A stretch of 64,000 nt of DNA, taken from IMG/VR virus record IMGVR_UViG_3300042460_000724, positions 32,001 through 96,000 of that record; one strand, given 5' to 3'. Shown here piece after piece: positions 20,716 to 39,495 of this stretch; within the stretch, counting starts at the first letter, position 1, and every line of letters starts with the position of its first letter. The DNA is from a virus. Position numbers and translations under genes: made by a program. A model generated the notes under the pieces. The model was not told the DNA's origin, made no database searches, and worked only from the letters and a program-made list of their open reading frames with translations.

Positions 20716-22420
20716 CTAATGCCCGTTTAAATTCACTGTAGTCAATACGACCAGGTTTGTGTACTTGAATTAACATTCTAGTTGATAATGCTACATTATT
20801 CAAGTGATTTAGGGCATGAGTAAGTTCTTCTTGCGTTATTTTGCCATTAGATAGACGTTGTTGATATGGATCAGTATACTCAAACTGAGTATCACATACT
20901 TCGATATCAATATCTTCTTCAAATGCTAGTAATGAATCACTTTCACCTTTATTTGCTTTTTCAAACATATGACGTTTGTTAAACAAGTTAAACATAGCAA
21001 CAGTAATCAATCGTTTATGTGTTGGGTCATCTAATGCAGTATCACAGCGCCAATGTGGAGTTTGTATTTCCCAAACAGCACCATTCTCACTTACACGATA
21101 TAGTTCTTTAATAACATCAATGAAGTCTCTACCAGTTTCTCCTAGATGTTCTAATATATCTTTAGCTACAACGTGTGAGTATTCGTTGTCTTTCCATGGC
21201 CAAGGTAGAACACTTAAATCAACCTGTTCATCGGCATCAATGAATGGTGATTTATCAACGTTAACAAATCCATCAAATTTCTTAAAGCCACAACCCAAGT
21301 TAAGTTTCTTAGTGACACGATCCTCATTTGGTTGATCGATATGTTTTAAGTTGAAACGTGCTTCTAGTGCAGTGTAAAGACTTTGGAATGTTGGGTCCCA
21401 TTTCTTTGGATCTGTTTGTCTAAAGATTTGTACACATTTGTAGTATGGGCTTGTGTTAGCATCAGGTGAGCCTGGTGTCCACGTATGATACGGGAGTATA
21501 GGAACGATGACCCATGTTTCTTTACCCATTGCGGCTGCTAAGTGTGCTACACTTGTACAAGATGAGATAACGATATCCATATTAGCAATAGCTGCCATTG
21601 TATCTTCCCAGCTTAACAAGAAGTGTTGCAAGTCAGTTACATTTTCAGGTAGTTGAATAATGTTATGATCCTTTTGCAAACTATATACCTGTAGTTCATC
21701 ATATTTTGCTAAGTTAGTGATAAAGTTCTCTGGAAACTTTCTAAATTGTTGATGTTCAAATTTAGGATTGCCTGCCCAACGAATACCAACTTTAATTTTT
21801 TCGCTGTTGACGAATGTTTTCCAAATTTCAATACTATCAGCTTTAGCAGTTAGATAAGGATCGTTTGGAAAGTTTGAGAATTCGTGACCAGCTACCCATC
21901 CGGCACTAAATCCAGGAACCCAATAATCATGAGGTACAGTATGTGATTGATTTCGTAGTATAACTTTATCTACACCTTCAATACGTTCAAATACTGATAC
22001 TAGTTCAGGTGCACAAGCGATGTATACTGATTTTGCACCTTGTTTTTTAAAGCTAGTAGCAAAACGTGCGTGAATGATTTCATCTCCGTACCCACCTTCT
22101 AGTGATACAATAATAGATTTATCGTTGATAGAATGTTTTTCTGGGTTAAAAATAGGTGCATCTGTTTTAAGAGGAGGGCTACCGTATACATTTAAGAAGC
22201 GACCATTCTCTAATAGTTGACAGCCTTTTCTATAGTCACCGTCTTGAATCATAAACCAACCACGGTTAAAGCAATGACGCATCCAAATATCTTCTGTATT
22301 TTGTCCTTTAGCGTCTACTATTTTTTCAGGGCCTATGTTTTCTAATTTATCTGATAATATTCTGGCTTCTAGATGTTTACCTTCTAATTGAAGCTTGAGC
22401 ATCATATCTATTTCGTGCAT
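20699..22420 (-). CDS. GT-B (GT9/heptosyltransferase-like) glycosyltransferase fused to a C-terminal methyltransferase
   Basis: 'EGGYGDEI', 'VGIRWAGNP', 'YSLQ', 'EDTMAAIANMDIVISSCTSVAHLAAAMGK'; then 'LNLGCG', 'ILEHL', 'DDPTH'. Confidence 0.8.
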   Translation of the reverse strand: MHEIDMMLKLQLEGKHLEARILSDKLENIGPEKIVDAKGQNTEDIWMRHCFNRGWFMIQDGDYRKGCQLLENGRFLNVYGSPPLKTDAPIFNPEKHSINDKSIIVSLEGGYGDEIIHARFATSFKKQGAKSVYIACAPELVSVFERIEGVDKVILRNQSHTVPHDYWVPGFSAGWVAGHEFSNFPNDPYLTAKADSIEIWKTFVNSEKIKVGIRWAGNPKFEHQQFRKFPENFITNLAKYDELQVYSLQKDHNIIQLPENVTDLQHFLLSWEDTMAAIANMDIVISSCTSVAHLAAAMGKETWVIVPILPYHTWTPGSPDANTSPYYKCVQIFRQTDPKKWDPTFQSLYTALEARFNLKHIDQPNEDRVTKKLNLGCGFKKFDGFVNVDKSPFIDADEQVDLSVLPWPWKDNEYSHVVAKDILEHLGETGRDFIDVIKELYRVSENGAVWEIQTPHWRCDTALDDPTHKRLITVAMFNLFNKRHMFEKANKGESDSLLAFEEDIDIEVCDTQFEYTDPYQQRLSNGKITQEELTHALNHLNNVALSTRMLIQVHKPGRIDYSEFKRALDGHKS

Positions 22421-22445: not shown

Positions 22446-22489
22446 GTTTTTTGTATATAAAACTGTAAAGTTATTTATATACAAAAAAC
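22446..22489. terminator. 16-bp perfect inverted repeat overlapping late promoter TATAAATA (22472-22479, minus)
   Basis: gttttttgtatataaa-(12 nt)-tttatatacaaaaaac just downstream of the 4384-aa gene. Confidence 0.65.
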
Positions 22490-22504: not shown

Positions 22505-25500
22505 TTACTTAGTAAACCCGAAGTGATTAAAGCCATTTGATACGGTCACTGCAGAGTAACCAACCGACGTAATTGCCGGTATTAATGGGCGATTGTCGTT
22601 GAATCCCCATTCGTATAATACATTGTTAGGATCTATGACAAAAGTACTATTAAAATTCGCAGATACCTGTGTCCAAGATGATGTACCAATTTGTGTAGGC
22701 ACACTATACATATTAGGAGGAGTATATGCTTGATTAGTGCCTAATTGAACTGGGCTGGATTTAGAGATCCTATCATTTAGACCAAGTTGACCACTAGTAT
22801 TAAGACCCCAAACATAAAGTTTGTTATCATTGCGAGTAGCCATCGATGAATTTATATTGGATCCACCTTTATTTAAATTAGTATATATAGAAGTACCAAG
22901 TTGTACCGGAGCTGATCTAGATAGAATGTCTAATAATCCTAATTGACCATTAGCATTATTACCCCAAGTAAACAAATAGCCATCACTACGTATAGCAAAT
23001 TGACTTGCACCAGTTGTTGAAGTGATAGTCCAAGAATCGGTTGCTGTGGGCAAGAATATTGGACTTAATGCAGATGTTACTGAATTAATTCCCAATTCAC
23101 CATTGGTATTAGTTCCCCAAGTATATAAACCATATAACTGATCTAATCCAATAGTAAATAGACCACCAGCTGAGACCATAGCCCATGAACTTGTACCAAT
23201 TTGTATTGGGCTTGATTTTGAAATTATTGTACTATCCCCTAATTGACCACTAGTACCTAATCCCCATGTAAATAATAAGTTATCGCTACGTACACCAGCC
23301 ATATAGTTTACACCAGAACTAACAGATGTCCAACTAATAGTGCCTAGTTGTACCGGACTACTTCTTAGTATCACATCGTTTGTTCCTAGTTGTCCGCTAG
23401 CATTATTTCCCCAAACATATAATAGTCCATCACTAGTAATGGCTGCTGTTGCAACACTACCGGCTGAAATAATACTCCAGCTATTTGTACCTATTTGCAC
23501 AGGACTACTTCTGCTTAATATAGCATTGTCACCTATTTGACCATTAGTACCAAGTCCCCACATAAATAGTGCACCATCACTACGTATTGCACCACGTGAT
23601 GTATTTTTAGAAATACTTGTCCAAACAGTACCAACGCCAATTTGTACTGGACTACTACGAGAGACTGTATCATTTTGTGCTAATTCACCGTTTGTATTAA
23701 TACCCCAAGCCCATAGTTTATTAGTAGCATCAAGAGCCATAAAGTTTGCAAGACCTGTTGATGAAGATACGGTGGTCCAACTACTTGTACCAACTTGTAC
23801 TGGACTACTACGATGTACTAAATTATTTGATGCTAGTTGTCCTGATGCGTTATCACCCCAAGTAAACAATCCACCGTCAATACGAATAGCGACGGTTGAT
23901 GTAGTAAATAAACCAACAGCAGTCCAAGAGCTTGTGCCAATTTGTACTGGACTGCTACGAGATATTGTATCATTTAGACCTAGTTGTCCACTAGTACCTA
24001 AACCCCACATAAACAATGCACCGTCACTACGAATGGCAGCACTAGTAGACAGTCCAGTTGATATTGTATTCCAGCTTAAGGCTGCAGGTTTGCTTGTAGT
24101 AGTCAAGTATGTCTGTTGTATCTCTGCACTTGTGAATGAATTTACTTGTACTGGACTAGACCTATTAGCAATGGATCTATCTCCTAATTGTCCACTAGCA
24201 TTACCGCCCCAAACATATAATAAATTATTTGTATTAATTGCAGAAGTTGAGCTTTGTCCAGCACTTACTATATTCCAGCTTGTACCAACTTGAACTGGAC
24301 TACTGCGGGATAATACTGTAGTATCTCCAAGTTGTCCTGTAGTATTAATACCCCAAGTAAACAATCTATTATCAGATGTAATTCCACCCACAAAAGTTAC
24401 GCCTGCACTTATTTGTGCCCAACTACTTGCGCCAATTTGTACCGGAGCAGATCGAGATATGATAGTAGTATCACCTATTTGACCACTAGCGTTAAGACCC
24501 CAAGCAAATAACAAGTTATCAATACGTATACCATATGATGTAGTTCCACCTGAGCTTACTGCATTCCATGACTCATTTATTGATCGGATAAATACTGGAC
24601 TACTTCTGGCTCCAAGAGATTCACTTAATCCAAGCTGTCCATTATTATTTTGTCCCCAAATGAAAAGTTGATTATCAGTATAAGTCAACGCCATAGTTAC
24701 TCCAGGAGACGTGCCTATACTAACCTGTGACCAACTGCTTGTACCAATTTGTACTGGACTACTACGAGGTAATATTGTATTGTCTCCTAGTTGACCATTA
24801 GTATTAATACCCCAAGACCAAAGAGTGTTGTCAAGACGTAAGGCAGTGGTTGTAGCAAATCCAGTTGATATAACAGACCAACTGCTTGTACCAATTTGTA
24901 CTGGACTACTACGAGGTAATATTGTATTGTCTCCTAGTTGACCATTAGCATTAATACCCCAAGACCACAGTGTAGAGTTAGTTCGGATAGCCATAGCATA
25001 CGACAGTCCGGCTGACACACTAGACCAACTGCTTGTACCTATTTGTACTGGACTACTGCGTGGCACGATAGTAGTTGATCCTAATTGTCCACTAGTATTA
25101 TCTCCCCAGGAGAAAAGAGCACCATCCAAACGTATAGCATATACACTTACATCTCCGGCACTAACCTTTGTCCAACTACTTGTACCAACTTGTACAGGAC
25201 TACTACGATGTAGTATAGTGCCATCACCTAATTGTCCGGCGTTATTATTACCCCAAGTAAACAATGCACCATCACTACGTATTGCACCAACACAAGCCAG
25301 AGTACTTACAAGAGTTCCTGTTGCAACACTTCCTGAAACTATAGTCCAGCTACTTGTACCAACTTGTACAGGACTACTGCGATGTACTAAGTCATTTTGA
25401 CCTAATTGTCCTATTGTATTTAATCCCCATGACCACAACGTATTATCATTACGGATTGCATACATTGCATTATTGCCTATTGATATCTGAGACCAGCTAG

Positions 25501-28500
25501 TTGTACCCAATTGTATTGGACTATTTGTATTAACAGTCGAATTTTGTCCTAGCTGTCCAAATGAATTAATTCCCCAAGTAAACAATGCTCCGTCACTACG
25601 TATTGCCGCTGAACTCCCAATAGACCCACCTGCATTGATTTTGGTCCAACTGAATCCTGTTTTACCGGTAGCAGTTAAGTAAGTACTTTGTAGAGTGTTA
25701 TTTGTAAATGAACTAATTTGTACTGGGCTACTCTTGTTAGCCACAAACAGTTGACCAAGTTGTCCACTAGCACCTGCACCCCAACCATATAATACGTTGT
25801 CTGCGGTTAATGCTAAAGTTGTAAAGTCGGTTCCTGCTGTTATTCCACCTGCACTAACAGTAGTCCAACTACTTGTACCTATTTGAACTGGGCTACTACG
25901 ATGTAATATAGTGTCATCACCCAAATTACCAACTGCGTTATTACCCCAAGTAAATAGTGCACCATCACTACGTATACCTGCAAAATGTCCGGCTGAGCTA
26001 GATAATGCAGTCCAACTATATGCGGTAAACGTATTAGCGGCAGGGTTACCCCAACCATACAATTTGTTATTTGTCTTTATACCTACATTATGGCTATAAC
26101 CTGCACTAATTTTACTCCATGTATCTCCTGTGATTTGTGTAGGCATTGGTTGGTAGCTAGCAATTTGTACTGGACTAGATTTACTTACTACAGTATTATC
26201 ACCAATAGCGCCGTAGCTAGCACCCGAACCCCAACCATAAAACAATAGATTACCATCGAGCACACCGTAACTATTAGTAGATCCAGTACCAATTATAGAC
26301 CAACTACTTAAACTTACTAATGTTGGGCTAGATGTAGCAACAACAGAGTTAATACCTAATTCTCCGCTGCCGTTACCACCCCAAGTATATAGTAACTTAG
26401 TAGAAGTTAACCCTACCATATGGCTTTGACCAACAGTAATTTGTGACCAGCTACTTGTACCAAGTTGGGTTGCACTACTACGGTGGACTAGATCACCTAA
26501 ACCTAATTGTCCATTAGCATTTTGCCCCCATACAAATAATAAACTATCACTGCGTATTGCAGCCGCAGTGTTTACATTCATTGATACTTGTGACCAAGAC
26601 TCATTAGCAGTACGAATGAACACCGGGCTAGTAGATTGTGTAACAGTATTATTGCCTATTGCACCAACAGCATTTTGCCCCCATACAAATAATTGCCTGC
26701 TTGTGTTATCTATAGCTGCCGTATTAATATATAATCCACTAACCTTATACCAAGTACTAGTACCAATTTGTACCGGACTAGATCGGGAGATAGCAGTACT
26801 ATCTCCTAATTGACCGTTTGTGTTTAGTCCCCAGCCCCATAATGTATTATCACTACGAATAGCAACTGAGTATTGATTACCTGCGTTAACACTTGTCCAA
26901 CTACTAGTACCAATCTGTACTGGACTACTTCTAGGGAGAACATTAGTTAAACCTAAACCACCATTAGTATTAATGCCCCATGACCACAATGTATTATTGT
27001 TTAGTAGTCCTACCATGTGTGAGTAACCAACTGCTATTTGACTCCAACTACCTGCACCAAGTTTTACAGGACTAGATTTACTTACTACGGTATTATCACC
27101 TAACTGTCCGTTTGTATTAATTCCCCAAGTGAATAGTCCGCCGTCACTACGCAATGCGGCAGTTATAGCACCATTAGTACTAACCTGTGTCCAACTACTT
27201 GTACCAACTTGTACAGGACTACTACGAGCTACAAGATCACCTAGTCCTAGTTGACCACTAGCATTAATTCCCCAGGCAAATAAAGCACCACCAAGTCGTA
27301 TTGCAGTTACAGTCGATATCCCTGCCGCAACACTTGTCCAACTACTAGTACCAATCTGTACTGGACTACTGCGTGGCAATACATCAGTTGTACCTAATTG
27401 TCCACTAGTATTTAGACCCCACACAAATAATGCTCCATCGTTACGTATAGCATATGTAGAAAAATCTCCCACTGCTACCTGAGTCCAACTGCTTGTGCCA
27501 ATTTGTACTGGACTACTACGATGGATGATAGTATTATCTCCTACACCGCCGTTGTTATTAGTTCCCCACGTGAATAATGCTCCATCATTACGTATGGCTG
27601 CAGTCATACCATTTACACCACCGGAGCTTATTACAGACCAACTAAATGTTGTTGTTCCAGTTGCAGTTAAATAACTATTTTGCTGTGCAAGAGAATATAT
27701 CGATCCTACTTGGGTTGGACTACTTTTATTGACAGTATCATTTAAACCAAGACCACCGATGCCGTTAATACCCCATGTAAATAACAAACCATCACTACGT
27801 ATACCAGCCATAGTTGTAGCTGCCTTACTATTAATTAAAGTCCAACTACTTGTACCAATTTGTACTGGGCTACTTCTACTAAGTATTGTACTATCCCCTA
27901 GTTGACCACTAGTACCTAATCCCCAAGTCCATAAACTACCATCATTACGTATAGCCCCAAGTCCACCTACTTTACTCCAAGTAGTATCGGTACCAATTTG
28001 AACTGGACTACTGCGGTGGACTAAATCATTTAACCCTAAATATCCGTCAGTGTTGTTACCCCAAGCCCACAATGTACCATCACTGCGTATAGCTGTAGTC
28101 CAAGATGTTTCCGAATTAACCTGTATCCAACTACTAGAACCAACTTGTACTGGACTGCTTCTATGAAATATATCACTCAGTCCTAATTGTCCAGATTCGT
28201 TAGCTCCCCAAGTCCATAAACTACCGTCACTACGAATACCAGTGAATCGTAAATTTTGTCCAGTCAATATTGACCAAGATGTTGGAGAATTAACCGGCAA
28301 TATAAAGTTTGTGGGACTTAATGTTGGATTATATGGCCATTGTTGATATTGTAATCCCCACCCATACAATGTATTATCTGATGCAATAGCAAGTGAATGT
28401 ACGTTGCCAGCACTTATTTGTGACCAACTACTAGTACCAAGTTGTACTGGACTACTACGATGTAATCCCTCATTATTTACCTGATATGAACTATTATTAC

Positions 28501-31500
28501 CCCAGGCAAATAATTTATTAGTACTAGAAATAGCAAGCACGTGACTTATACCTGCACTAACTTGTGACCAACTGCTAGCACCTATTTGTGTTGGGCTATT
28601 TGAGTATGGTGTTGCACCAACTTGTACTGGGCTACTACGATGTTCTAACCAACTACCTGATATAGTTGTTGGATTAAATGCTAATCCTAGTGCTCCATTA
28701 GTGTTATTACCCCATATATATGCTATACCAGTAGTTGTGATTGCATTGGTTATTCCTGAACCGGCAGCACTAACACTTGCCCAGTCGCTATTATTACCTA
28801 TTTGAGTAGGATATGATTTACTAGTTGTAGAATTATCACCCAACTGTCCAAAAGTTGTATTAATTCCCCAAGTAAATAGTTTTCCATCGGATCTAATAGC
28901 TGATGACAAGCTTTGTCCAGCGCCAACGCTAATCCAGGAATCATTCATTGAGCGAATGAATACCGGGCTACTGCGGCTGGTAATTCCTAATATACCCAAT
29001 TCTCCACTAGTACCAAGTCCCCAAGTAAATAATGCGTTACCTGTATCGGCTGCAGTAATACCTAAAATGTTAGTATAGCCAGTTACCATTGTCCAACTAT
29101 TTGCACCAATTTGTACAGGGAATGATTTAGCAACTGTGGTACCATCACCCAATGATCCAGCAGTATTATTTCCCCAAGCAAACAGTAAACCATCACTTCG
29201 TATTCCTGATAATCCTGCAACAACTGTACCAATTGCAGTCCAAGAATCTGCTACTGAACGAATGAATACTGGGCTGGATCTACCGGCAACAACACCATTA
29301 CCAATAACGCCATCCCCACCTGCAGTAGTTCCCCATGTAAACATTTGCCCATTTGCATCAAGTGCGACTATTGCACTACCTGCATTAACGGTAGTCCAAC
29401 TACTTGTACCTGTAGTAAGTGTTGGACTAAAATATGTGTTCACTAGTGAGTTATTACCAAACTGTGCATTAGCTCCACTACCCCACATATATAGTAAATT
29501 ACCACTTATACCGGCTGTGACTGTGCCGCCTGCAGTTACTACACTCCAACTACTTGTACCAATTTGTACAGGACTACTACGATGTTGGGTAGAATCCGGA
29601 GTTCCTAACACACCACTAGTACCTGCACCCCAAGTGAATAATGAACCATCACTGAGAATTGCTACTGTCCATGATAAACCAGATGCTACTGCAGTCCAAC
29701 TGCTACTACCAATTTGTACTGGGCTACTACGATTTAGAGCAGTGCCATCACCTAGTTGTCCAAATGTGTTTACTCCCCATGCATATAATGCGCCAGTAGT
29801 ACGTATAGCATTACTTCTATTATTTGCAGAATAAACTTTTGACCATGTGTTTTCAGTACCGATTTGTACTGGACTACTACGAGCTACTACTGTGTTTAAT
29901 CCCAGTTGACCTACATCATTAGCACCCCAACTCCATAATGTACCATCACTACGAACCGCTAATACTGTACCGCCGGTAGTGTTAAACGGTCCTGTTGCAA
30001 CAGCAGTCCAACTACTTGTACCAACTTGTACCGGGCTACTACGATGAGCCTGTGTACCATCACCTACAGTACCTGCAGTGTTAACTCCCCAAGTCCATAA
30101 TGTATTATCACTACGTATGGCAGCCGTGAATGATGCTCCTGCTGATACTGTCAACCAGCTATTAGTACCAACTTGTACAGGACTACTACGATGCACTATG
30201 TCATTTAGACCTAATGCGCCATTGATGTTATTACCCCATGCAAACAATAAGCCGTCATTACGAATAGCAAACATTGTATTATTGGTATTTACCACAGTAG
30301 ACCAACTGTAACCAGTCTTACTTGTCTTTGTCAAATATGCCTGTTGTTCTGCAGGTGAAGAGAACGAAACAATTTGTACAGGGCTATTACGAGCAACTAC
30401 AGTTCTATCCCCTAATGCACCACCTGAACCAGAACCCCACGTGTACAATGTATTGTTAGCCATTATACCTGCTGTTGTACCAGATGCTTGTGTAGCAACA
30501 ATATTCCAATTACTTGTACCAAGTTGTACAGGGCTACTGCGTGAAATTGAGTCACCGATGCCAAGCTCACCGGCTGTATTTAATCCCCATGCAAATAATT
30601 TACTATCAGTTCGTATTGCAAATGTGCTGTTACCATTTGCTGTTACTAATGTCCAGCTGTTACCCGTACCTACTTGTACTGGGCTACTTCTAGCGATAAT
30701 ATCGTTTACTCCAAGATTACCAGAACCATTGACTCCCCAACCATATAATTTTCCATCCAACGTAATAGCAAAGGTAGATGTAGCGTTAGTTGTACTATTA
30801 GATGGTACAACTGACCAACTACTTGTGCCTAGTTGAACTGGGCTACTACGATGTACTAAATCATTTAGACCAAGTTGACCATTAAAATTGCCACCCCAAA
30901 CAAATAATAGTCCGTCACTTCTAATAGCGTAAGTATGGCTTATGCCAGCAGCAATACCACTCCAATTACTTGTTCCTATTTGTACCGGACTACTTCTGTG
31001 TAGAATATCATTTAAACCAAGTTGTCCGATACTGTTAGTTCCCCATGCAAATAACTTACTATCGCTACGAATAGCAAATGAAGTAGATGCACCTGCGGTT
31101 ACTGTAGTCCAACTCAATGTTCTAGGTTTACCTGTACTAGTTGACCAAGCAATTTCATCAGCTAATGTAATTAGTGATGAAATTATTACAGGTAATAAGA
31201 TTGTTCCTGGAGCATTACCTGTACCCAATTGACCATTATCATTATTGCCCCAACCGTATAAAACATTGTCCATGGTTAAAGCTAATGTATGAGTAGAGCC
31301 GGTGCTTATCATAGTCCAGCTACTTGTACCAACTTGTACTGGACTTGATTTTAGTATGACGGTGTTGTCCCCCAATTGACCAACATCATTATTACCCCAT
31401 GACCATAATGTTTTATCATTACGAATGGCCGCGGTAAATGTATCACCCTGTGCAACTTGGTACCAAGTATTAATAGTTGCATTTACTTGCACTGGGCTAC

Positions 31501-34500
31501 TAGTATCTACTACACTGTTAATACCTAATTCACCGACTGTATTACCGCCCCATGCGTATAAATACCCATTACCATTAGTGTAGTCCTGTATTATTCCCAT
31601 GCGTCCAGCAACCATAGTCCAACTACTTGAACCAATTTGTACTGGACTAGATTTATTTACAATTGAGTTGTCACCTAATCCACCATACGTATTATTACCC
31701 CAAGTAAATAAGGCTCCATCACTTCTTATTGCAGAAACAACGTATGCATTTCCAATATCACCAGATTGTCCTGCACTAACCATAATCCAGCTACTTGTAC
31801 CAACCTGTACTGGACTACTGCGATGTACTGTGTCATTAAGGCCCAATTGTCCTTGGCTATTAAGTCCCCATGACCACAAATAATTATTAGTGTCAATACT
31901 AAAAGCATTACCGAAGCCTGCCGCTAGTTGTTTCCAACTACCGGTACCTATTTGTACTGGACTACTTCTATTAATACCATCATTCTCTCCTAACTCCCCT
32001 ACGGTATTTTTACCCCATGACCACAATGTTCCATCTAATCGTATACCATAGGACGATGAATCCAATCCTGACACCGCTGAGGTCCAAAGTAAATTACCAA
32101 TCTGTACTGGACTACTACGAGCTACAACAGTATTATCTCCTATTTGTCCTGAATTATTGAAACCCCAAGCCCATAACGTACCATCAATACGTATAGCGAT
32201 GGGAGTTAGTCTTCCAGCAGAAACCATATTCCAGCTACTTGTACCAACCTGTACAGGACTACTTCTGAGAAGACCACTAACGTTTGCACCTAATGCACCT
32301 AATGAATTATCAGTTCCCCATGACCAAAGTGATTTGTCACTACTACGTATAGCAAATAAAAATCCTTGTCCAGCACTAACCATAGTCCAACTACTAGTAC
32401 CAATCTGCACAGGGCTACTACGATGTATTTGATTATTTGTACCTAATTGACCGTATGTATTACTACCCCAAGACCATAAACTACCATCACTTCTTATGCC
32501 TGCCGCAGTTTGTGTGCCATCTACTGGCATACTAGATCCTGATAGATATGTCCAACTTAATAAATCTTTACCTAACTGTATTGGTTGGGATCTATTTATA
32601 ACATTATTTTGTCCTAATTGACCACTAGTCCCTAGACCCCAAAGCCAAAGTGTATTATCATTACGTATACCAGCGACATGGTTTGAGTTAAAACTTCCTT
32701 CACCTATACTTGTCCAAGAATCATTCATAGAGCGAATGAATACAGGTGTAGACATAGTTACCATGTTACCGTCACCTATTTGGCCGTCAGTACCAATACC
32801 CCAAGTATATAATTGACCGGCTGAAGTAATACCCATACCGCCTGATGACCCAGCCGGTACTATAGTCCAACTACTAGTAGTAACTTGTAATGGTAATGAT
32901 TGGTTACCTGGGTTGCCACCTAACGCACCAAATCCATTATATCCCCATCTAAATAACAAACCATCACTACGCACAGCTCCATATTCATCTGTACCTGAAC
33001 TTACATAAGTCCATGAATCAAATATACCTGCACGAATAAATACTGGGCTAGAACGTTGCAATATAGTATTATCACCTACACCACCTTGTGTGTTGCCTGC
33101 CCAAGTAAACAACACACCGTTACTATCTATTGCAGTAGCTCCATTAACAAAAGTCCAACTACTACTACCTATTAGTACTGGGCTGTTTTTATTAGCAGTT
33201 GTATTATCACCCAATTCGCCGTTAGTATTTAAACCCCAAGCAAACAATGCACCATCATTACGTATTCCATACATAGTAGATGTCCAACTGTTGACATAAT
33301 TCCATGTATTAGTTCCAACTTGTACGGGACTGCTACGATGCACTGAACTGGCTGCCCCTAATTGACCAGACCCATTAGCCCCCCAAGTAAACAATGCACC
33401 ATTACTACTTATAGCACCAGTGAATGACCCGCCTAACGCAACCATAGTCCAACTACTTGTGCCTAGTTGAACTGGGCTACTACGAGCTACTGCATCATTA
33501 AATCCTAACTGCCCCAGTGTATTATCACCCCATATAAATAAAGCACCGTCTGTTCGTATGGCAGCTAAATTTGTACCAAAATTAGTGCCGCTTGCTACCA
33601 TAGTCCAACTACTACTACCAACTTGTACCGGACTACTTCGATTTACTGCGTCATTTAGTCCTAATTGGCCTACTGTATTAGCTCCCCAAGCCCATAAACC
33701 ACCGCCACTTTTAATAGCGGCCATCGGTCCTATGGATGATCCGGATGCTAGTTTTATCCAATCAGTATCAGTACCGACCTGTACCGGGCTACTGCGATGT
33801 ATTTGATTATTTTGTCCTAATGAACCTTCATCATTACGACCCCATGTCCATAATGTTCCATCTATTTTGATTGCGGCTGCATATGATGTGCCTCCAGCAA
33901 TTGCAGCCCAACTACTTGTACCGATTTGCACAGGGCTACTACGATGTACTAAATCATTTAGACCTAATTGTCCTATAGTATTTTGTCCCCATGAAAATAA
34001 CAATCCATCACTACGTAATGCCAATCTAGTATTACTACCTGTAGTAAATGTCAAATTGGCTACAGTAGTCCAACTAAGCGGTGTTACTCCTATGGTAGTT
34101 AAATATGTTTGTTGTTGTGCTGATGTTCTAATTGAAGTTATTTGTACTGGACTACTTTTGTTTATCCCCAGTCCTTCACCAAGATAGGTACCTGTGCCCC
34201 AAGAATACAACGCACCATCTGTAGTTATTCCCATTGTGACACTTGTTCCACTAGTGACCATAGTCCAACTACTTGTACCAATTTGTATTGGGCTAGATTT
34301 TGCAACTAATGTGGTGTCACCCAATTGACCATTAGTATTAACACCCCACGTAAATAAGTTACCTGTAGTAGTTATGGCGGCGGTCATGCCAGAACCAGCA
34401 CTGACCATAGTCCAACTACTTGTGCCTAGTTGAACTGGACTACTGCGATGTACACCAACGTCATTGAGACCTAATTGTCCATTAGTGTTATTTCCCCAAA

Positions 34501-35659
34501 CCCATAATGCACCGTTTGTGTCTATGGCAGCAACGTTATCCTGACTAACCGCACCGTTAGTTATTACTTTACTCCAAATAGTAGCGGTACCAACTTGTAC
34601 TGGACTACTTCTATTAATAATGTTATTTGATCCCAACTGCCCGGCTGCATTATACCCCCATGACCACAAAGTATTGTCTGCTCGTATTGCAAGTGTAGCA
34701 AATCCGTTAGCAGATACGCTAGACCAACTGCTAGTACCAACTTGTACTGGGCTACTACGTCTAACAATATCATTTAATCCCAAATTACCATAAGTATTAA
34801 GTCCCCAAGCAAATAATGCACCATCATTTCTTATAGCAAACATTGACCATGCGGCACCATACGATACTGCTGTCCAACTAAGTTGTGTAGTAGCTATACT
34901 AGATACATATGACTGTTGGATTTGAACTGAAGTTAATGAACCAGTTAAGGTAGGGCTTGAAAGATTATTTGTATTATTATTACCTCCTTGCCCTTGACCA
35001 GCACTACCCCATACCCACAGTGTACTATCAGAACGTAGTGCTGTGCGTGTTGTTCCGCCACTTCCGCCTAATGCAGACCAAGTACTTGTACCAATTTGTA
35101 CTGGACTACTGCGATGTACTGTGTCATTAAGGCCCAATTGTCCTTGGCTATTAATACCACCGATAGCCCACATTGTACCATCAGATTCTATACCTATAGT
35201 ATTTCCGGCCAGTACTTGAGTCCAACTGTTTGCCGCCCAAGATGATAACATACTATTATTACCAAGTTGACCGTTAAACCCTAATCCCCAAGCAAACATT
35301 AATCCATCATTATTAATAGCATAAGAAGTATCACCGTTAGTACTAACCGCACTCCAATTATTAACACCTATCTGTACTGGGCTACTACGATGTGCTAATG
35401 TAAGATCATTATTGCCTAATTGACCATATGTATTGGCGCCCCATCCAAATAGTTTACCGTCACTACGAATACCTATAGTATGACTTAATCCACTTGCAAC
35501 TTGGCTCCATGATTGTGTACCGATTAATACTGGACTAGATTTAAAAACTGTATTTTCTGTTCCGAGTTGACCCCAAGTGTTGTCACCGAACATATATAAT
35601 GATTCAATATCACCGCCGGTTGATGGTTGGACTGTTAATAACCATTTTTCTAATAACAT
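22505..35659 (-). CDS. Giant RCC1/BLIP-II repeat protein, 84 blades in 12 nested 7-blade propellers; probable virion appendage
   Basis: ~50-aa repeat W..VSAG...AIRSDG.LF.WG.N..GQLG......SSPVQIGTSS, counted by hand; follows fibre chaperone gene. Confidence 0.9.
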   Translation of the reverse strand: MLLEKWLLTVQPSTGGDIESLYMFGDNTWGQLGTENTVFKSSPVLIGTQSWSQVASGLSHTIGIRSDGKLFGWGANTYGQLGNNDLTLAHRSSPVQIGVNNWSAVSTNGDTSYAINNDGLMFAWGLGFNGQLGNNSMLSSWAANSWTQVLAGNTIGIESDGTMWAIGGINSQGQLGLNDTVHRSSPVQIGTSTWSALGGSGGTTRTALRSDSTLWVWGSAGQGQGGNNNTNNLSSPTLTGSLTSVQIQQSYVSSIATTQLSWTAVSYGAAWSMFAIRNDGALFAWGLNTYGNLGLNDIVRRSSPVQVGTSSWSSVSANGFATLAIRADNTLWSWGYNAAGQLGSNNIINRSSPVQVGTATIWSKVITNGAVSQDNVAAIDTNGALWVWGNNTNGQLGLNDVGVHRSSPVQLGTSSWTMVSAGSGMTAAITTTGNLFTWGVNTNGQLGDTTLVAKSSPIQIGTSSWTMVTSGTSVTMGITTDGALYSWGTGTYLGEGLGINKSSPVQITSIRTSAQQQTYLTTIGVTPLSWTTVANLTFTTGSNTRLALRSDGLLFSWGQNTIGQLGLNDLVHRSSPVQIGTSSWAAIAGGTSYAAAIKIDGTLWTWGRNDEGSLGQNNQIHRSSPVQVGTDTDWIKLASGSSIGPMAAIKSGGGLWAWGANTVGQLGLNDAVNRSSPVQVGSSSWTMVASGTNFGTNLAAIRTDGALFIWGDNTLGQLGFNDAVARSSPVQLGTSSWTMVALGGSFTGAISSNGALFTWGANGSGQLGAASSVHRSSPVQVGTNTWNYVNSWTSTMYGIRNDGALFAWGLNTNGELGDNTTANKNSPVLIGSSSWTFVNGATAIDSNGVLFTWAGNTQGGVGDNTILQRSSPVFIRAGIFDSWTYVSSGTDEYGAVRSDGLLFRWGYNGFGALGGNPGNQSLPLQVTTSSWTIVPAGSSGGMGITSAGQLYTWGIGTDGQIGDGNMVTMSTPVFIRSMNDSWTSIGEGSFNSNHVAGIRNDNTLWLWGLGTSGQLGQNNVINRSQPIQLGKDLLSWTYLSGSSMPVDGTQTAAGIRSDGSLWSWGSNTYGQLGTNNQIHRSSPVQIGTSSWTMVSAGQGFLFAIRSSDKSLWSWGTDNSLGALGANVSGLLRSSPVQVGTSSWNMVSAGRLTPIAIRIDGTLWAWGFNNSGQIGDNTVVARSSPVQIGNLLWTSAVSGLDSSSYGIRLDGTLWSWGKNTVGELGENDGINRSSPVQIGTGSWKQLAAGFGNAFSIDTNNYLWSWGLNSQGQLGLNDTVHRSSPVQVGTSSWIMVSAGQSGDIGNAYVVSAIRSDGALFTWGNNTYGGLGDNSIVNKSSPVQIGSSSWTMVAGRMGIIQDYTNGNGYLYAWGGNTVGELGINSVVDTSSPVQVNATINTWYQVAQGDTFTAAIRNDKTLWSWGNNDVGQLGDNTVILKSSPVQVGTSSWTMISTGSTHTLALTMDNVLYGWGNNDNGQLGTGNAPGTILLPVIISSLITLADEIAWSTSTGKPRTLSWTTVTAGASTSFAIRSDSKLFAWGTNSIGQLGLNDILHRSSPVQIGTSNWSGIAAGISHTYAIRSDGLLFVWGGNFNGQLGLNDLVHRSSPVQLGTSSWSVVPSNSTTNATSTFAITLDGKLYGWGVNGSGNLGVNDIIARSSPVQVGTGNSWTLVTANGNSTFAIRTDSKLFAWGLNTAGELGIGDSISRSSPVQLGTSNWNIVATQASGTTAGIMANNTLYTWGSGSGGALGDRTVVARNSPVQIVSFSSPAEQQAYLTKTSKTGYSWSTVVNTNNTMFAIRNDGLLFAWGNNINGALGLNDIVHRSSPVQVGTNSWLTVSAGASFTAAIRSDNTLWTWGVNTAGTVGDGTQAHRSSPVQVGTSSWTAVATGPFNTTGGTVLAVRSDGTLWSWGANDVGQLGLNTVVARSSPVQIGTENTWSKVYSANNRSNAIRTTGALYAWGVNTFGQLGDGTALNRSSPVQIGSSSWTAVASGLSWTVAILSDGSLFTWGAGTSGVLGTPDSTQHRSSPVQIGTSSWSVVTAGGTVTAGISGNLLYMWGSGANAQFGNNSLVNTYFSPTLTTGTSSWTTVNAGSAIVALDANGQMFTWGTTAGGDGVIGNGVVAGRSSPVFIRSVADSWTAIGTVVAGLSGIRSDGLLFAWGNNTAGSLGDGTTVAKSFPVQIGANSWTMVTGYTNILGITAADTGNALFTWGLGTSGELGILGITSRSSPVFIRSMNDSWISVGAGQSLSSAIRSDGKLFTWGINTTFGQLGDNSTTSKSYPTQIGNNSDWASVSAAGSGITNAITTTGIAYIWGNNTNGALGLAFNPTTISGSWLEHRSSPVQVGATPYSNSPTQIGASSWSQVSAGISHVLAISSTNKLFAWGNNSSYQVNNEGLHRSSPVQLGTSSWSQISAGNVHSLAIASDNTLYGWGLQYQQWPYNPTLSPTNFILPVNSPTSWSILTGQNLRFTGIRSDGSLWTWGANESGQLGLSDIFHRSSPVQVGSSSWIQVNSETSWTTAIRSDGTLWAWGNNTDGYLGLNDLVHRSSPVQIGTDTTWSKVGGLGAIRNDGSLWTWGLGTSGQLGDSTILSRSSPVQIGTSSWTLINSKAATTMAGIRSDGLLFTWGINGIGGLGLNDTVNKSSPTQVGSIYSLAQQNSYLTATGTTTFSWSVISSGGVNGMTAAIRNDGALFTWGTNNNGGVGDNTIIHRSSPVQIGTSSWTQVAVGDFSTYAIRNDGALFVWGLNTSGQLGTTDVLPRSSPVQIGTSSWTSVAAGISTVTAIRLGGALFAWGINASGQLGLGDLVARSSPVQVGTSSWTQVSTNGAITAALRSDGGLFTWGINTNGQLGDNTVVSKSSPVKLGAGSWSQIAVGYSHMVGLLNNNTLWSWGINTNGGLGLTNVLPRSSPVQIGTSSWTSVNAGNQYSVAIRSDNTLWGWGLNTNGQLGDSTAISRSSPVQIGTSTWYKVSGLYINTAAIDNTSRQLFVWGQNAVGAIGNNTVTQSTSPVFIRTANESWSQVSMNVNTAAAIRSDSLLFVWGQNANGQLGLGDLVHRSSATQLGTSSWSQITVGQSHMVGLTSTKLLYTWGGNGSGELGINSVVATSSPTLVSLSSWSIIGTGSTNSYGVLDGNLLFYGWGSGASYGAIGDNTVVSKSSPVQIASYQPMPTQITGDTWSKISAGYSHNVGIKTNNKLYGWGNPAANTFTAYSWTALSSSAGHFAGIRSDGALFTWGNNAVGNLGDDTILHRSSPVQIGTSSWTTVSAGGITAGTDFTTLALTADNVLYGWGAGASGQLGQLFVANKSSPVQISSFTNNTLQSTYLTATGKTGFSWTKINAGGSIGSSAAIRSDGALFTWGINSFGQLGQNSTVNTNSPIQLGTTSWSQISIGNNAMYAIRNDNTLWSWGLNTIGQLGQNDLVHRSSPVQVGTSSWTIVSGSVATGTLVSTLACVGAIRSDGALFTWGNNNAGQLGDGTILHRSSPVQVGTSSWTKVSAGDVSVYAIRLDGALFSWGDNTSGQLGSTTIVPRSSPVQIGTSSWSSVSAGLSYAMAIRTNSTLWSWGINANGQLGDNTILPRSSPVQIGTSSWSVISTGFATTTALRLDNTLWSWGINTNGQLGDNTILPRSSPVQIGTSSWSQVSIGTSPGVTMALTYTDNQLFIWGQNNNGQLGLSESLGARSSPVFIRSINESWNAVSSGGTTSYGIRIDNLLFAWGLNASGQIGDTTIISRSAPVQIGASSWAQISAGVTFVGGITSDNRLFTWGINTTGQLGDTTVLSRSSPVQVGTSWNIVSAGQSSTSAINTNNLLYVWGGNASGQLGDRSIANRSSPVQVNSFTSAEIQQTYLTTTSKPAALSWNTISTGLSTSAAIRSDGALFMWGLGTSGQLGLNDTISRSSPVQIGTSSWTAVGLFTTSTVAIRIDGGLFTWGDNASGQLASNNLVHRSSPVQVGTSSWTTVSSSTGLANFMALDATNKLWAWGINTNGELAQNDTVSRSSPVQIGVGTVWTSISKNTSRGAIRSDGALFMWGLGTNGQIGDNAILSRSSPVQIGTNSWSIISAGSVATAAITSDGLLYVWGNNASGQLGTNDVILRSSPVQLGTISWTSVSSGVNYMAGVRSDNLLFTWGLGTSGQLGDSTIISKSSPIQIGTSSWAMVSAGGLFTIGLDQLYGLYTWGTNTNGELGINSVTSALSPIFLPTATDSWTITSTTGASQFAIRSDGYLFTWGNNANGQLGLLDILSRSAPVQLGTSIYTNLNKGGSNINSSMATRNDNKLYVWGLNTSGQLGLNDRISKSSPVQLGTNQAYTPPNMYSVPTQIGTSSWTQVSANFNSTFVIDPNNVLYEWGFNDNRPLIPAITSVGYSAVTVSNGFNHFGFTK
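24729..24967. repeat. 92-nt direct repeat, one mismatch, period 147 nt (one blade)
   Basis: 24729-24820 versus 24876-24967. Confidence 0.85.
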
Positions 35660-35662
35660 ATT

Positions 35663-36172
35663 TTAACCACCAAACATAGGCCAAATAATATTAAAAGGAT
35701 CTGTCTGCGTAGTAATATCTGCTAATGCTTGCATATATGCATCCATTAATGTTAAATCATCTACAGTGGGTTCACCTAATCTAAGTTGTCTATCATATCG
35801 AGTGTATCGCCATTCAAAATCTTTCATCTTTGTATCACGTTCACCTCTTATCAAATTCCATTGATCTCTAGTACGTAGTTCTTGTTGTAGCTGTATATCT
35901 TCAGGCGAGGGTTCGTATATCACTGATTTAGGTAGCTCAATAATATCCATTGTTTCATACGCAACACCATCAGTAAAATACTGTCTAGGATTATCTATTT
36001 TTTGTGTTTCTGGATTATATTCAGGGTATGCTTTTACTAATGTATACCAACCAAATGATAAACGTTCTTCTTCTGTAAGTGCATAAAAATTACTGATATT
36101 TTTCCAATTATTTGGAATAAGGTCGTATACACCTTCTATATTACCGTCAACAATATGAGCATAATTAGCCAT
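35663..36172 (-). CDS. Tail fibre assembly chaperone
   Basis: 'QWNLIRGERD...YMQALADITTQTDPFNIIWP'; ATG 36172 coupled to upstream stop. Confidence 0.75.
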   Translation of the reverse strand: MANYAHIVDGNIEGVYDLIPNNWKNISNFYALTEEERLSFGWYTLVKAYPEYNPETQKIDNPRQYFTDGVAYETMDIIELPKSVIYEPSPEDIQLQQELRTRDQWNLIRGERDTKMKDFEWRYTRYDRQLRLGEPTVDDLTLMDAYMQALADITTQTDPFNIIWPMFGG

Positions 36173-36564
36173 TATAAATTTTGTCCTGAAACAAATGCCT
36201 GCCAATTTATACCACCATCAGTAGTAAAAAAGGTGAATACATCTTCTTTGTTATTACTTGATGTTAATGTAGGAGCAGTTCCTCCTGGCCAGTGAAAGCT
36301 AGCAGGCCAAGTAACTGAACGAGCAGTACCATCAGCAGTGAAAACTAGTACAAATGAACTTGCTCTACCTGCTGATTGTATGTTAGAGAATGTGATAGAT
36401 GTGATGTTAGAATTTAAAGCGACATTGAATACAGTAGCGATATTTAAATTTAGTGTTAAAACGCCGGCACTAATAGTAGCAGTCGCACTAACTTCTGCTG
36501 AATTGTTTGGTAAAAATACCTTATTGTCGTCAATTACGGTCGACCCGATTACTTTAATTGCCAT
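36172..36564 (-). CDS. Small fibre/adaptor protein
   Basis: All-beta 130 aa, 'VTWPASFHWPGGTAPTLT...DVFTFFTTDGG..W' phage fibre domain. Confidence 0.6.
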   Translation of the reverse strand: MAIKVIGSTVIDDNKVFLPNNSAEVSATATISAGVLTLNLNIATVFNVALNSNITSITFSNIQSAGRASSFVLVFTADGTARSVTWPASFHWPGGTAPTLTSSNNKEDVFTFFTTDGGINWQAFVSGQNL

Positions 36565-36591: not shown

Positions 36592-36598
36592 TATTTAT
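36592..36598 (-). promoter_or_regulatory. Late promoter-like ATAAATA heading adaptor-chaperone-RCC1 operon
   Basis: GATAAATAG then AAGGAG RBS. Confidence 0.6.
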
Positions 36599-39495
36599 CT
36601 TTTTTTGAGAGCGTCTATATCCTCTTGCTGTTTTTTAACAGCCTCGATTAAGAATGCTATAATGGGTATATAGTTAACAGCTTTTTTACCTTGACTATTA
36701 GTACTTACTAACTCTGGTAATATTTTTTCAACCATTTGCGCCATTAAACCATATGATTTTTTCTTACTGTCTGTCCAATTGAAACCCATACCAAACAACT
36801 GTGACAATATTGACATTGGATCTGTGATTGATTGAGGGTTCTCTTTTAGTGTTGCGTCAGACAATGTGTTTAAATCCTGTACAGTTAATTGTCCTGTACT
36901 TGGAATAAACTGTAGTTTAGTTGTTGTTATACCAGCAGTTAATAACCCACCAGAAGTACTTGTTGCATATACAGGGTAAAAAGTTGAACCAGAACTTGTA
37001 TTATCAGTGATTATTGGAGTGGCTTGGGCCCAAGTTACATTTCCAGAACCATTTGTCTGTAAAAATTGATTAGCGGTCCCGTTAGCAATACGTAAGTTAG
37101 CTACTGCACCCAAGTTAATATTGCTTGAGTTTTGAAACTCAACTGTTGTCACGTTTGCAAAGTTAGCTACATTAGCAGTAAAGCTAATATTAGCCGTTGC
37201 ATTGCTTACTGTTAAACCAGTTAGTGTACCAACACTTGTAATGTTTGGTTGACTTGATGCCCCTGATACAATTGTACCATAGAAGTAATTAGCACTAATA
37301 TAGTTAGCACCAATAATGTTACCGCCTGCGCCCGCACCAGCAATAATATTACCTGTAATATTAGCATTGCCTGCAACGTTTGCACCAGTGCTTGTAACAA
37401 TCAATACATTAGCATTACCGCCAACGCCAACTGTTACATTTCCGTTAGCAGCCGGTATGCTTATGTTACTATTGCCATTACTGAATACACCTGTAAAATA
37501 ATTTGCACTAATTAAGTTAGCACCTGTAATACTACCACCAGTACCAGATCCTGCACTAAGATTGCTAACTGCTACGTTACCGCTATAGTTTGCTGTATTA
37601 CCAGTTAATAATCCCGACACAGTTAAACTTGATAATGTACCAACACTTGTAATATTTGGTTGTGAGGCTGTTGTTAATGTACCAGTAAATGTATTAGCAC
37701 TAATATCATTAGCTCCGGATATATTGCTGCCTGTTAATGTTACATTACTACCAAATGCTACGTTGCCTGTAATATTAGCAGTACCATTAATATTTGCACC
37801 CGTGCTAGTTACAACTACAATGTTTGCGTTACCACCTACACTTGTAGTTACATTTCCACCGGCTGTCGCAATGTCAACAATACTTGTACCGTTACTAATA
37901 TATGCGGCGCCGCCACCGCCGCCAGCAGGAACCCAACTTAAGTTACCAGCACCGTCTGTTTGTAATACATAGCCATTAGTACCGCCCGTAATACGTACAT
38001 TAGCAACTGTACCTAACGATACATTAGCACCGCTTAGTGCTACATTACCGGTAGTATTTAATGTACCGGCAACATTAACACCGGTGCCAGTAATTACCAT
38101 AATTGTATTGCCAACTGCAGTAAAATTAATATTACCATTTGCTGTAGGTATATTTACAGTACTATTACCATTTGCAATATTACTTCCGCCACCTCCTCCG
38201 GATTGTGCTACCCAACTTAATGTCCCTGAGCCATCTGTTTGTAATACATAACCACTAGTACCACCCGAGATATGCAAATTACTAACTGCGCCCAATGTTA
38301 CGTTAGCAGAGGTTGTAAAATCAACTATTCCTGTTGCGTTACTTACTGTTAAACCAGTCAACGAACCAACTGAAGTTATATTTGGTTGTGCCGCTGTTGT
38401 CAATGAACCAGATACTGTAGTAAAATAACCACCGGTAGCACCTATATTACCTGCGTTAGCATTACCCGTAGCATTTAATGTTCCTGCTACATTAGTACCA
38501 GTGCCAGTTACAATCATAATGTTTGCGTTACCGACTGCGCTAAATGTTATATTCCCGTTAGCAGAGGGAATATTTACATTACTATTGCCATTTGACATAC
38601 TTGCCGGGGTCACATCAACACCCGTTAAGAAAGCACCATTACCAATGAAGTATGGAGCATTAACATTACCAGTAATATTTGCATAGCCTGCAACGTTAAC
38701 ACCTGTACCGGTAATTTTCATTATATTAGCATTGCCAACCGCATTGAATGTGATATTCCCGTTAGCGGTTGGAATATTTACATTACTATTGCCATTTGAA
38801 ATATTAGCTGGGTTTGTGTCTACACCGGTTAAGAATGCACCATTACCGATGAAGTACGGGGCATTAATGTTACCAGTGACATTTGCATAGCCTGCAACGT
38901 TAACACCGGTACTCGTTACAACCATAATGTTTGCGGTACCGGCTACACTAGTAGTTACATTTCCACCTGAGGTTGCAATAGTTAAATTACTTGTTCCATT
39001 GACCACTCTACCGGCAGCATCTATTCCGGTCAACTGACTACCATTACCAATAAAGTAATTACCGGATATATTACCGGCAACATTAATACCGACACCAGTA
39101 ATAACCATTGTTGTGTTACCGGCAGCTGTTAGGTTAATATTTCCATTTGCACTTGGGATATTTACGTTACTATTGCCATTTGAGTGTGGTCCTAATATAT
39201 TACCAAATGAACCATTACCTGTTACGGTTACACTATATAATGTACCTAGTGAAGTAATATTTGGTTGTGCATTTGTATATACTGTACCTGAAATTAGAGC
39301 ATTACCTACTTGTCCAGAGATGTTACCGGCTGGTAAACTTGTTAGATTTGCACCTGATCCGCTGAAGAAATTAGCTATTGCTAGATTACCCAAATTAGCG
39401 TTTAATGAAGATAGGTTACCCGTAGCATTTACGTTATTGAACGTAAAATTTTCTGTTGAATCTATGACGTACGGTTCTATCTGTATTAAAGCCAT
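36595..39495 (-). CDS. Asn/Gly/Thr-rich fibre with C-terminal intramolecular chaperone (peptidase S74)
   Basis: 'LSDATLKEN', 'YGLMAQMVEKILPELV', 'VNY...LIEAVKKQQ'. Confidence 0.85.
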   Translation of the reverse strand: MALIQIEPYVIDSTENFTFNNVNATGNLSSLNANLGNLAIANFFSGSGANLTSLPAGNISGQVGNALISGTVYTNAQPNITSLGTLYSVTVTGNGSFGNILGPHSNGNSNVNIPSANGNINLTAAGNTTMVITGVGINVAGNISGNYFIGNGSQLTGIDAAGRVVNGTSNLTIATSGGNVTTSVAGTANIMVVTSTGVNVAGYANVTGNINAPYFIGNGAFLTGVDTNPANISNGNSNVNIPTANGNITFNAVGNANIMKITGTGVNVAGYANITGNVNAPYFIGNGAFLTGVDVTPASMSNGNSNVNIPSANGNITFSAVGNANIMIVTGTGTNVAGTLNATGNANAGNIGATGGYFTTVSGSLTTAAQPNITSVGSLTGLTVSNATGIVDFTTSANVTLGAVSNLHISGGTSGYVLQTDGSGTLSWVAQSGGGGGSNIANGNSTVNIPTANGNINFTAVGNTIMVITGTGVNVAGTLNTTGNVALSGANVSLGTVANVRITGGTNGYVLQTDGAGNLSWVPAGGGGGAAYISNGTSIVDIATAGGNVTTSVGGNANIVVVTSTGANINGTANITGNVAFGSNVTLTGSNISGANDISANTFTGTLTTASQPNITSVGTLSSLTVSGLLTGNTANYSGNVAVSNLSAGSGTGGSITGANLISANYFTGVFSNGNSNISIPAANGNVTVGVGGNANVLIVTSTGANVAGNANITGNIIAGAGAGGNIIGANYISANYFYGTIVSGASSQPNITSVGTLTGLTVSNATANISFTANVANFANVTTVEFQNSSNINLGAVANLRIANGTANQFLQTNGSGNVTWAQATPIITDNTSSGSTFYPVYATSTSGGLLTAGITTTKLQFIPSTGQLTVQDLNTLSDATLKENPQSITDPMSILSQLFGMGFNWTDSKKKSYGLMAQMVEKILPELVSTNSQGKKAVNYIPIIAFLIEAVKKQQEDIDALKKR

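Follow-up and report, generated by a model that had tools for sequence, protein, structure and literature searches.

Seven-Blade Propellers Probably Inserted within One Another in a Giant RCC1-Repeat Protein of an Uncultured Phage

How might a single polypeptide accommodate 84 successive blades of a repeat family whose known members form single rings of seven? The question is raised by an uninterrupted open reading frame (ORF) at positions 22505–35659 (minus strand) of a 64,000-nucleotide stretch of viral DNA (positions 32,001 to 96,000 of the IMG/VR virus record IMGVR_UViG_3300042460_000724, herein referred to as the window), which encodes a protein of 4384 amino acids (aa), P0001. The source record comprises 110,305 bases with a CheckV completeness of 31%, which suggests a phage genome of several hundred kilobases, and a megablast search of the DNA against phage records gave no match; the protein would belong to a large, T4-like (Kyanoviridae-related) uncultured phage. 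In a Pfam scan, RCC1 and RCC1-like domain (RLD) models cover P0001 from end to end and place it in the family above the curated cut-offs (PF00415, PF13540, PF25390), with PF25390 reaching 2121 bits over 21 stretches (cut-off 150) and PF00415 reaching 1632 bits over 67 stretches. The same scan gave a weak match to DUF5897 and, RCC1 models aside, no virion-attachment or fibre-shaft domain; about 24 N-terminal residues come before the first strand. We consider it probable, from the features of the sequence set out below, that P0001 is a giant structural or adhesion protein of a tail-fibre module in which the 84 blades form twelve seven-blade propellers joined by domain insertion and not end to end. 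The wider proposition that the propellers are nested in some form, including variants in which the ring boundaries are shifted, we regard as highly likely.

Profile hidden Markov models (HMMs) were built from P0001 itself, one for the whole repeat and two for half-blades (strands A-B-C in one, the WG/GQLG loop and strand D in the other), and were then mapped back onto the protein. This parse yields 83 whole blades together with an N-terminal C-D half and a C-terminal A-B half, the frame in which canonical RCC1 is closed, and hence the same 84 blades as the 84 repeats counted in the initial annotation of this locus, which a model had made without database searches. Most blades are joined by a standard short turn leading from strand D to the next strand A, and the exceptional junctions fall into three kinds. 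At type i junctions (n = 7, leading into the child propellers lettered C, D, F, G, I, K, and L), the D strand of the parent blade is followed by a linker of about 20 aa and then by the child; the linker is QQxYL-like in six of the children, F being the exception with another sequence, and, counting on from the linker, blade 7 or blade 14 carries a D strand with the motif PVFIR (PIFLP in L) that runs straight into the next blade. At type ii junctions (n = 3, leading into B, H, and J within the root propeller, A), the parent blade ends after the WG loop without a D strand and the child starts there, and on the exit side the child's last normal D strand is followed, 5–11 residues on, by a second, spare D strand. 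The blades without a D strand lie at aa 101, 2411, and 3180 and the spare D strands at about aa 2354, 3172, and 4320, each interrupted host blade being completed later in the chain in the correct nesting order. The simplest reading is that a blade missing its outer strand and a strand missing its blade belong together as one blade, into whose C-D loop the chain between them has been inserted. The only marks of the bracket around E are two junctions that each exceed the normal length by 2 residues, and because these marks are so weak the bracket is drawn mainly from counting. The initial annotation had described two classes of junction that pair like brackets; the pairing and the nesting stand, but the number of classes does not, since type ii is a kind of its own and E is weakly marked.

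The counts enclosed by these junctions follow a strict rule. All ten motif-defined junction pairs (E excluded) are properly nested, and they enclose 7 blades (D, G, I, K, and L), 14 blades (C, F, and H), 21 blades (J), or 42 blades (B), leaving each host with seven blades of its own; root A consists of six blades and the two halves, and E is placed by counting only. By our own arithmetic, ten multiples of seven would arise by chance with a probability of about (1/7)^10, given independent positions, and when the junctions were placed at random 2,000,000 times, a valid tree never resulted. The tree drawn in the initial annotation, with exactly seven own blades in every bracket and a root closed by half blades, accordingly holds for the ten motif-defined pairs and for the root, and for E by count. 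Its spans agree with our blade starts to within about 6 nucleotides (nt), and its six leaves of 1041–1089 nt measure 347–363 aa here (1041–1089 nt); the span that it gave to E fits a count of seven, the two extra residues at each junction leaving that bracket to be supplied by the count. As an observation, the pattern it described is confirmed, far beyond chance.

Read from the N terminus, with all features on the minus strand and placed by the HMM parse, root A is divided into four pieces. The first (aa 1–144; 35228–35659) holds a short leader, the N-terminal C-D half, a blade at aa 50, and the blade at aa 101, which is without its D strand and forms the entry to B. Branch B and its contents occupy aa 145–2350 (42 blades; 28610–35227), with own blades starting at aa 145, 193, 981, 1398, 1447, 2241, and 2292, and its blades line up in order with those of C, D, and E at shift 0. 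Within this branch lie propeller C (five plus two own blades), which encloses leaf D (aa 261–980 together; 32720–34879; linker and PVFIR motifs conserved), leaf D itself being seven contiguous blades (aa 529–881; 33017–34075); leaf E, with its weak brackets (aa 1035–1397, seven blades; 31469–32557); and propeller F (five plus two own blades), which encloses leaf G (aa 1516–2240 together; 28940–31114), leaf G spanning aa 1785–2138 (29246–30307). By blade similarity, F and G are a paralogue of C and D. The second root piece (aa 2351–2460; 28280–28609) brings the spare D strand that would close the blade at aa 101, a blade at aa 2363, and the blade at aa 2411 without a D strand, where H enters. 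Propeller H (four plus three own blades) encloses leaf I (aa 2461–3166 together; 26162–28279; leaf I at aa 2673–3020, 26600–27643), and this pair was the target of a confident AlphaFold model. The third root piece (aa 3167–3214; 26018–26161) consists of a spare D strand and the blade at aa 3180, without a D strand, at the entry to J. Propeller J (two, three, and two own blades) encloses leaves K and L (aa 3215–4309 together; 22733–26017), K at aa 3337–3696 (24572–25651) and L at aa 3862–4208 (23036–24076). The last root piece (aa 4310–4384; 22505–22732) holds a spare D strand, a blade at aa 4328, and the C-terminal A-B half, which would pair with the N-terminal C-D half.

We propose that these pieces would fold as a tree. 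The root propeller would be closed by its N-terminal C-D and C-terminal A-B strands, three branches would be inserted in the C-D loops of three root blades, and further propellers would sit between branch blades, down to four levels. Each bracketed set would form one closed ring, the strands on which a ring starts and ends being a prediction.

Comparison with homologues bears on this proposal. Across four orthologues (P0003–P0006, 56–69% identity) all junctions are conserved, apart from those of L in P0006. That orthologue (4048 aa) is without aa 3840–4208, that is, the L entry linker (aa 3840–3861), seven blades, and the exit motif, and has a normal junction instead; the rest of J, with K, is retained. 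This is the only large difference among the four. The initial annotation had predicted that homologues would count in multiples of seven, with insertions and deletions at bracket sites, and P0006, which drops exactly leaf L and both of its junctions, is a single case of such gain or loss of a whole insert.

The order of the blades provides a further line of evidence. Blade similarity was averaged over the five orthologues after trimming of the D-strand tails, and the scores were double-centred, since raw scores mirrored overall blade quality. With blades numbered according to the nested parse, the strongest similarity is between blades of equal number in 34 of the 55 pairs of propellers (about 8 by chance), compared with 5 of 55 when consecutive sevens are numbered. 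Parents B, C, F, and H best match the leaves at shift 0; the best match of parent J to the leaves is at another shift. For parent blades past an insert, the expected position has a mean rank of 2.76 against 4.0 by chance and ranks first in 7 of 17 cases, and position is kept most clearly by blades 6 and 7 of C and F and by blade 7 of B, H, and J. Where an entry linker follows, the preceding blade tends to look like the seventh (last) blade of a leaf (aa 464, 1717, 193, 1447, and 3794), a likeness that we read as a possible signature of blades where the chain leaves its ring. The blade right after an exit is often like a first blade (aa 3021, 4209, and 2241).

Type i motifs are confined to the close orthologue group, and a metagenome scan returned relatives at no more than 46% identity, save for one 195-nt match at 59%. 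The split-blade grammar, however, is widespread in relatives from IMG/VR viral contigs and metagenomes. One of these, P0132 (1093 aa), resolves into a root holding a ring that itself holds a ring, with seven blades per level and the same grammar: the C strand at the N terminus has no D strand after it, nor has blade 4 of the next ring, and the two spare D strands come 7 blades and then a further 3 blades on. Three other phage RCC1 proteins of about 1100 aa (P0152, P0168, and P0179) have the same three-ring nested pattern. In distant giants (P0020–P0044), the site of insertion for laminin G (LamG) domains of about 230 aa is, in 34 of 35 cases, the turn from a D strand to the A strand that follows, which is the D-to-A site of type i as well and indicates that the blade-to-blade junction is a general insertion site in the phage RCC1 family. 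An automated stack parse of about 230 relatives falls off a cliff past 7 enclosed blades (53 cases at 7, 5 at 8) and also returns many false short counts, and this noise makes it useful only as a hint; a 4073-aa relative on L004, with many degenerate blades, gave no clean tree when parsed by hand. Tandem arrays are viable in the family as well, because P0135 and P0185 carry linkers at every seventh blade and an 1100-aa relative (L008:4380–7679) consists of 21 perfectly regular 51-aa blades with zero linkers. Linker-free regular arrays of 21 or 14 blades of 51 aa also occur on L009, L012, and L021, and on L013 (7306–9498, 731 aa).

AlphaFold was run on H+I (aa 2455–3168) with a 101-row alignment made up of paralogous type i modules of P0001 and of the L001 orthologue together with 91 phage proteins of roughly 840–1145 aa, and ring frames were read from superposing the model on solved structures. 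The model has a predicted local distance difference test score (pLDDT) of 86.8 and a predicted template modelling score (pTM) of 0.64. Its blades are four-stranded, as in solved RLDs, with matches to UVR8 at Z 27.1 (352 residues, 3.1 Å), to HERC1/2 at Z 24–25, and to RCC1 at Z 20–21, and a helix is predicted at the type i linker. A run on J+K+L (1103 aa, 5-row alignment) gave a mean pLDDT of 34 and was unusable. In the H+I model, one complete ring lies in the middle of the segment, with 3–3.5 high-confidence blades on each side, an arrangement that, although shifted by half to one blade, weakly supports an insertion. Frames corresponding to consecutive sevens (residues 7–367 and 368–712) are absent among the superpositions, and tandem propellers fit the model poorly (TMq 0.22–0.23).

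Several observations nevertheless weigh against the tree as we have drawn it. More than 10 canonical RLDs align to model residues 166–170 through 530–536, and UVR8 and RPGR to 148–150 through 531–533; the best ring takes in the blade before the entry linker and omits most of the last "leaf" blade, being offset from the brackets by half to one blade. Since the best frames run from the pre-linker blade into the last leaf blade, the linkers do not mark the limits of the modelled ring. Other windows of residues score nearly as well (59/75/102 through 482, 121 through 531, and 222 through 576); with so many near-equal windows and a root-mean-square deviation (rmsd) of at least 3 Å, the model leaves ring closure itself doubtful, and a Z-score of 27 at 3.1 Å seems lower than would be expected of a well-closed RLD ring. 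The outer ring is unseen, since no superposition spans both flanks of the model, although this absence is uninformative about the outer ring because one domain can fill the match list; nor is there a discontinuous ring in any model or structure. Beyond the model, multiples of seven would also be expected if seven-blade cassettes had merely entered a linear chain in the course of evolution, bracket E has no distinctive junctions and depends on the count, and a place for P0001 in the virion and any binding activity are predictions from gene position. The ring frames themselves carry little weight, as the relatives of about 1100 aa supply about 18 blades to the 14 blades of the query and blade adjacency is consequently broken in those rows. 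As predictive evidence, the model speaks against equating the linkers with exact ring boundaries, without deciding the matter. The structural check on H+I proposed in the initial annotation therefore came out divided: the central complete ring and the lack of consecutive-sevens frames give weak support to insertion in general, whereas the bracket boundaries were not reproduced. Its interpretation as a whole is partly supported; the arithmetic, the split blades, the loss of L, the order of the blades, and the LamG site favour insertion, and the ring boundaries in the H+I model disagree; the virion appendage that it proposed is a prediction from gene context.

One way to accommodate these frames is a nested protein with offset ring boundaries, in which the pre-linker blade would supply its C-D strands (or all of itself) to the start of a ring and the last "leaf" blade its A-B strands to the end. 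The PVFIR strand of that last blade would then go to the parent ring, and inserted rings would close by strand exchange like RCC1 and the root. Such an arrangement fits the frames on which the canonical, C-D/A-B-closing RLDs and, with their slightly earlier start, UVR8 and RPGR superpose; root A has the same frame, the conserved motif on the last D strand of every type i child would be accounted for, and the resemblance of the pre-linker blade to the last leaf blade would be in keeping with it. However, the B-C turns are just 2–3 residues long and would probably give two exchanging strands little space, it is hard to see what a 20-aa linker would do once the first half blade has ended, and the frames derive from a scrambled alignment (18 blades on 14) in which other windows score almost equally. 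On this evidence we hold offset boundaries to be unlikely.

A linear string of twelve propellers made of consecutive sevens, in which the linkers would be surface loops and the spare and missing D strands irregularities left by cassette duplication, has in its favour the tandem arrays found among the relatives (L008, P0135, and P0185), the fact that gain or loss of a seven-blade cassette preserves a linear register as well, and the AlphaFold ring of H+I, which crosses the entry linker. Yet by our own count only 4 of the 22 junctions follow a multiple of seven from the N terminus, a linear chain does not explain why entry and exit motifs should pair and nest or why missing D strands should be matched by spare ones, the order of the blades is at chance for consecutive sevens, and the H+I model has neither the corresponding rings nor a good fit to tandem propellers; a string of this kind strikes us as improbable. 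More remote still in our estimation is a protein without regular closed rings, composed in part of open arcs or irregular stacks, for which the arithmetic would be a trace of gene growth. The sliding seven-blade windows of the H+I model, from residues 59 to 576, do fit solved rings about equally at an rmsd of at least 3 Å; but these windows may stem from the scrambled alignment, the strict sevens are conserved at 56–69% identity, and we know of no RCC1 blades that form open arrays. Of these readings, propellers nested by insertion best account for the grammar of the sequence.

The genes around P0001 suggest what such a protein may do. Its gene is encoded within a tail-fibre and baseplate module on the minus strand. 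Directly upstream lie a 180-aa ORF resembling tail-fibre assembly chaperones (35663–36205; PF16778, phrog_4912), a 130-aa ORF like the C-terminal ends of tail-fibre proteins (36172–36564; phrog_9017 and others), and a 966-aa fibre protein with a C-terminal Peptidase_S74 intramolecular chaperone (36595–39495). Further upstream stand two giants of 1548 aa (39549–44195) and 1620 aa (57192–62054), each with six Laminin_G_3 domains and a He_PIG immunoglobulin (Ig)-like domain and with PHROGs matches to baseplate wedge or virion structural proteins. In the same structural cluster, minus-strand ORFs of 1931 aa (51363–57158) and 1401 aa (44531–48736) have no or almost no Pfam or PHROGs match. The order of genes recurs in cultured phages: in Synechococcus phage BUCT-ZZ01 a fibre gene, a small ORF, and an RCC1 protein follow one another as here, and in S-SRM01 the RCC1 gene comes after that of the long-tail-fibre distal subunit. 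From the fibre-gene neighbours and this synteny, P0001 is most likely a fibre- or baseplate-associated adhesin with many propeller faces, a prediction drawn from the position of its gene. Carried on a compact branched body, these faces may allow multivalent binding of host surface polymers.

Downstream of the RCC1 gene are glycosyltransferase genes; the interval immediately adjoining it (19996–22420, minus strand) encodes a GT25 glycosyltransferase and, in a 573-aa ORF, a protein whose PHROG match is methyltransferase-like. The large subunit of ribonucleotide reductase is encoded at 10250–12571 (minus strand; phrog_84, E-value 3.7e-267) in the same minus-strand block. Across the window, TATAAATA, a motif like the T4 late promoter, shows no enrichment (9 observed, 14.5 expected), and none lies just upstream of the RCC1 gene; one copy is found at 22472–22479, between the RCC1 stop codon and the next gene.

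Whether the arrangement extends beyond P0001 and its orthologues is a wider matter. We lean, without great assurance, towards the view that recursive self-insertion, in a C-D loop or between blades, is a general building rule of the large phage RCC1 family, giving tree-like single chains that would range from three rings in about 1100 aa, as in P0132-like proteins, to the twelve rings and four levels of P0001. Giant "RCC1 family" proteins of aquatic phages encoded beside tail-fibre genes probably take part in host recognition, and, if the rule is general, they would be compact, branched, multivalent binding bodies, a design that we have not seen for any repeat protein. If the tree fold is correct, a single chain can carry a closed repeat fold set within copies of itself many times over, which would bear on the folding and evolution of giant proteins and offer a design route to branched, rigid, multivalent scaffolds from a single gene. 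It would also supply a reading rule for unannotated giants of this family in aquatic phages: a blade without its D strand opens a bracket, and a spare D strand closes it.

Among known systems, P0001 shares its repeat family and, judged by the H+I model, its blade fold with the RCC1-like domains of RCC1, UVR8, HERC1/HERC2, RPGR, and BLIP-II, and the closure of RCC1 by C-D and A-B half-blades is like that of root A. Known RLDs, however, are single seven-blade rings, whereas P0001 has 84 successive blades, no other domain, and a grammar indicating rings within rings. In proteins with several RLDs, such as HERC2, these are known as separate domains along the chain. A counterpart of P0001 in a cultured phage is a 700-aa RCC1 protein of BUCT-ZZ01 (L054:5959–8061), annotated as a BNR repeat protein and sited after tail-fibre genes, which is 45% identical to H+I over 96% of its length; it comprises 13 blades flanked by terminal half-blades (C-D at the N terminus, A-B at the C terminus) like those of P0001, and its first full blade has a D strand with the sequence PFIR, resembling the exit motif. 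Unlike P0001, the RCC1 proteins of the cultured cyanophages BUCT-ZZ01 and S-SRM01 have 7 to 14 blades and no type i linkers. Tandem propellers (PDB 2ymu; Aip1, 1nr0) likewise place many identical blades in one chain as several seven-blade rings, as proposed here, but their rings are consecutive in sequence and the junctions of P0001 do not fall every seven blades. The I domain of integrin alpha is inserted between propeller blades 2 and 3. In the muzzle protein of crassviruses, Ig-like domains stand between and within propeller blades (PMC10172136). In both of these, as would be the case in P0001, which appears to use both sites, a compact guest with adjacent ends occupies a site between or inside blades; the guest there is of a different fold and at one level, whereas the guests of P0001 would be of the same family, at four levels and with up to three per host. 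The initial annotation knew of no description of such an architecture, and a literature search, from which subscription journals were mostly outside the scope, likewise found no report of a propeller nested in one of its own kind, of recursive inserts, or of giant phage RCC1 proteins; texts that paired "RCC1" with cyanophages mostly seemed to refer to strain numbers in a culture collection. Foreign domains in propellers and several RLDs in one chain are known already; what would be new in P0001 is a propeller whose guests are of its own family and are inserted recursively.

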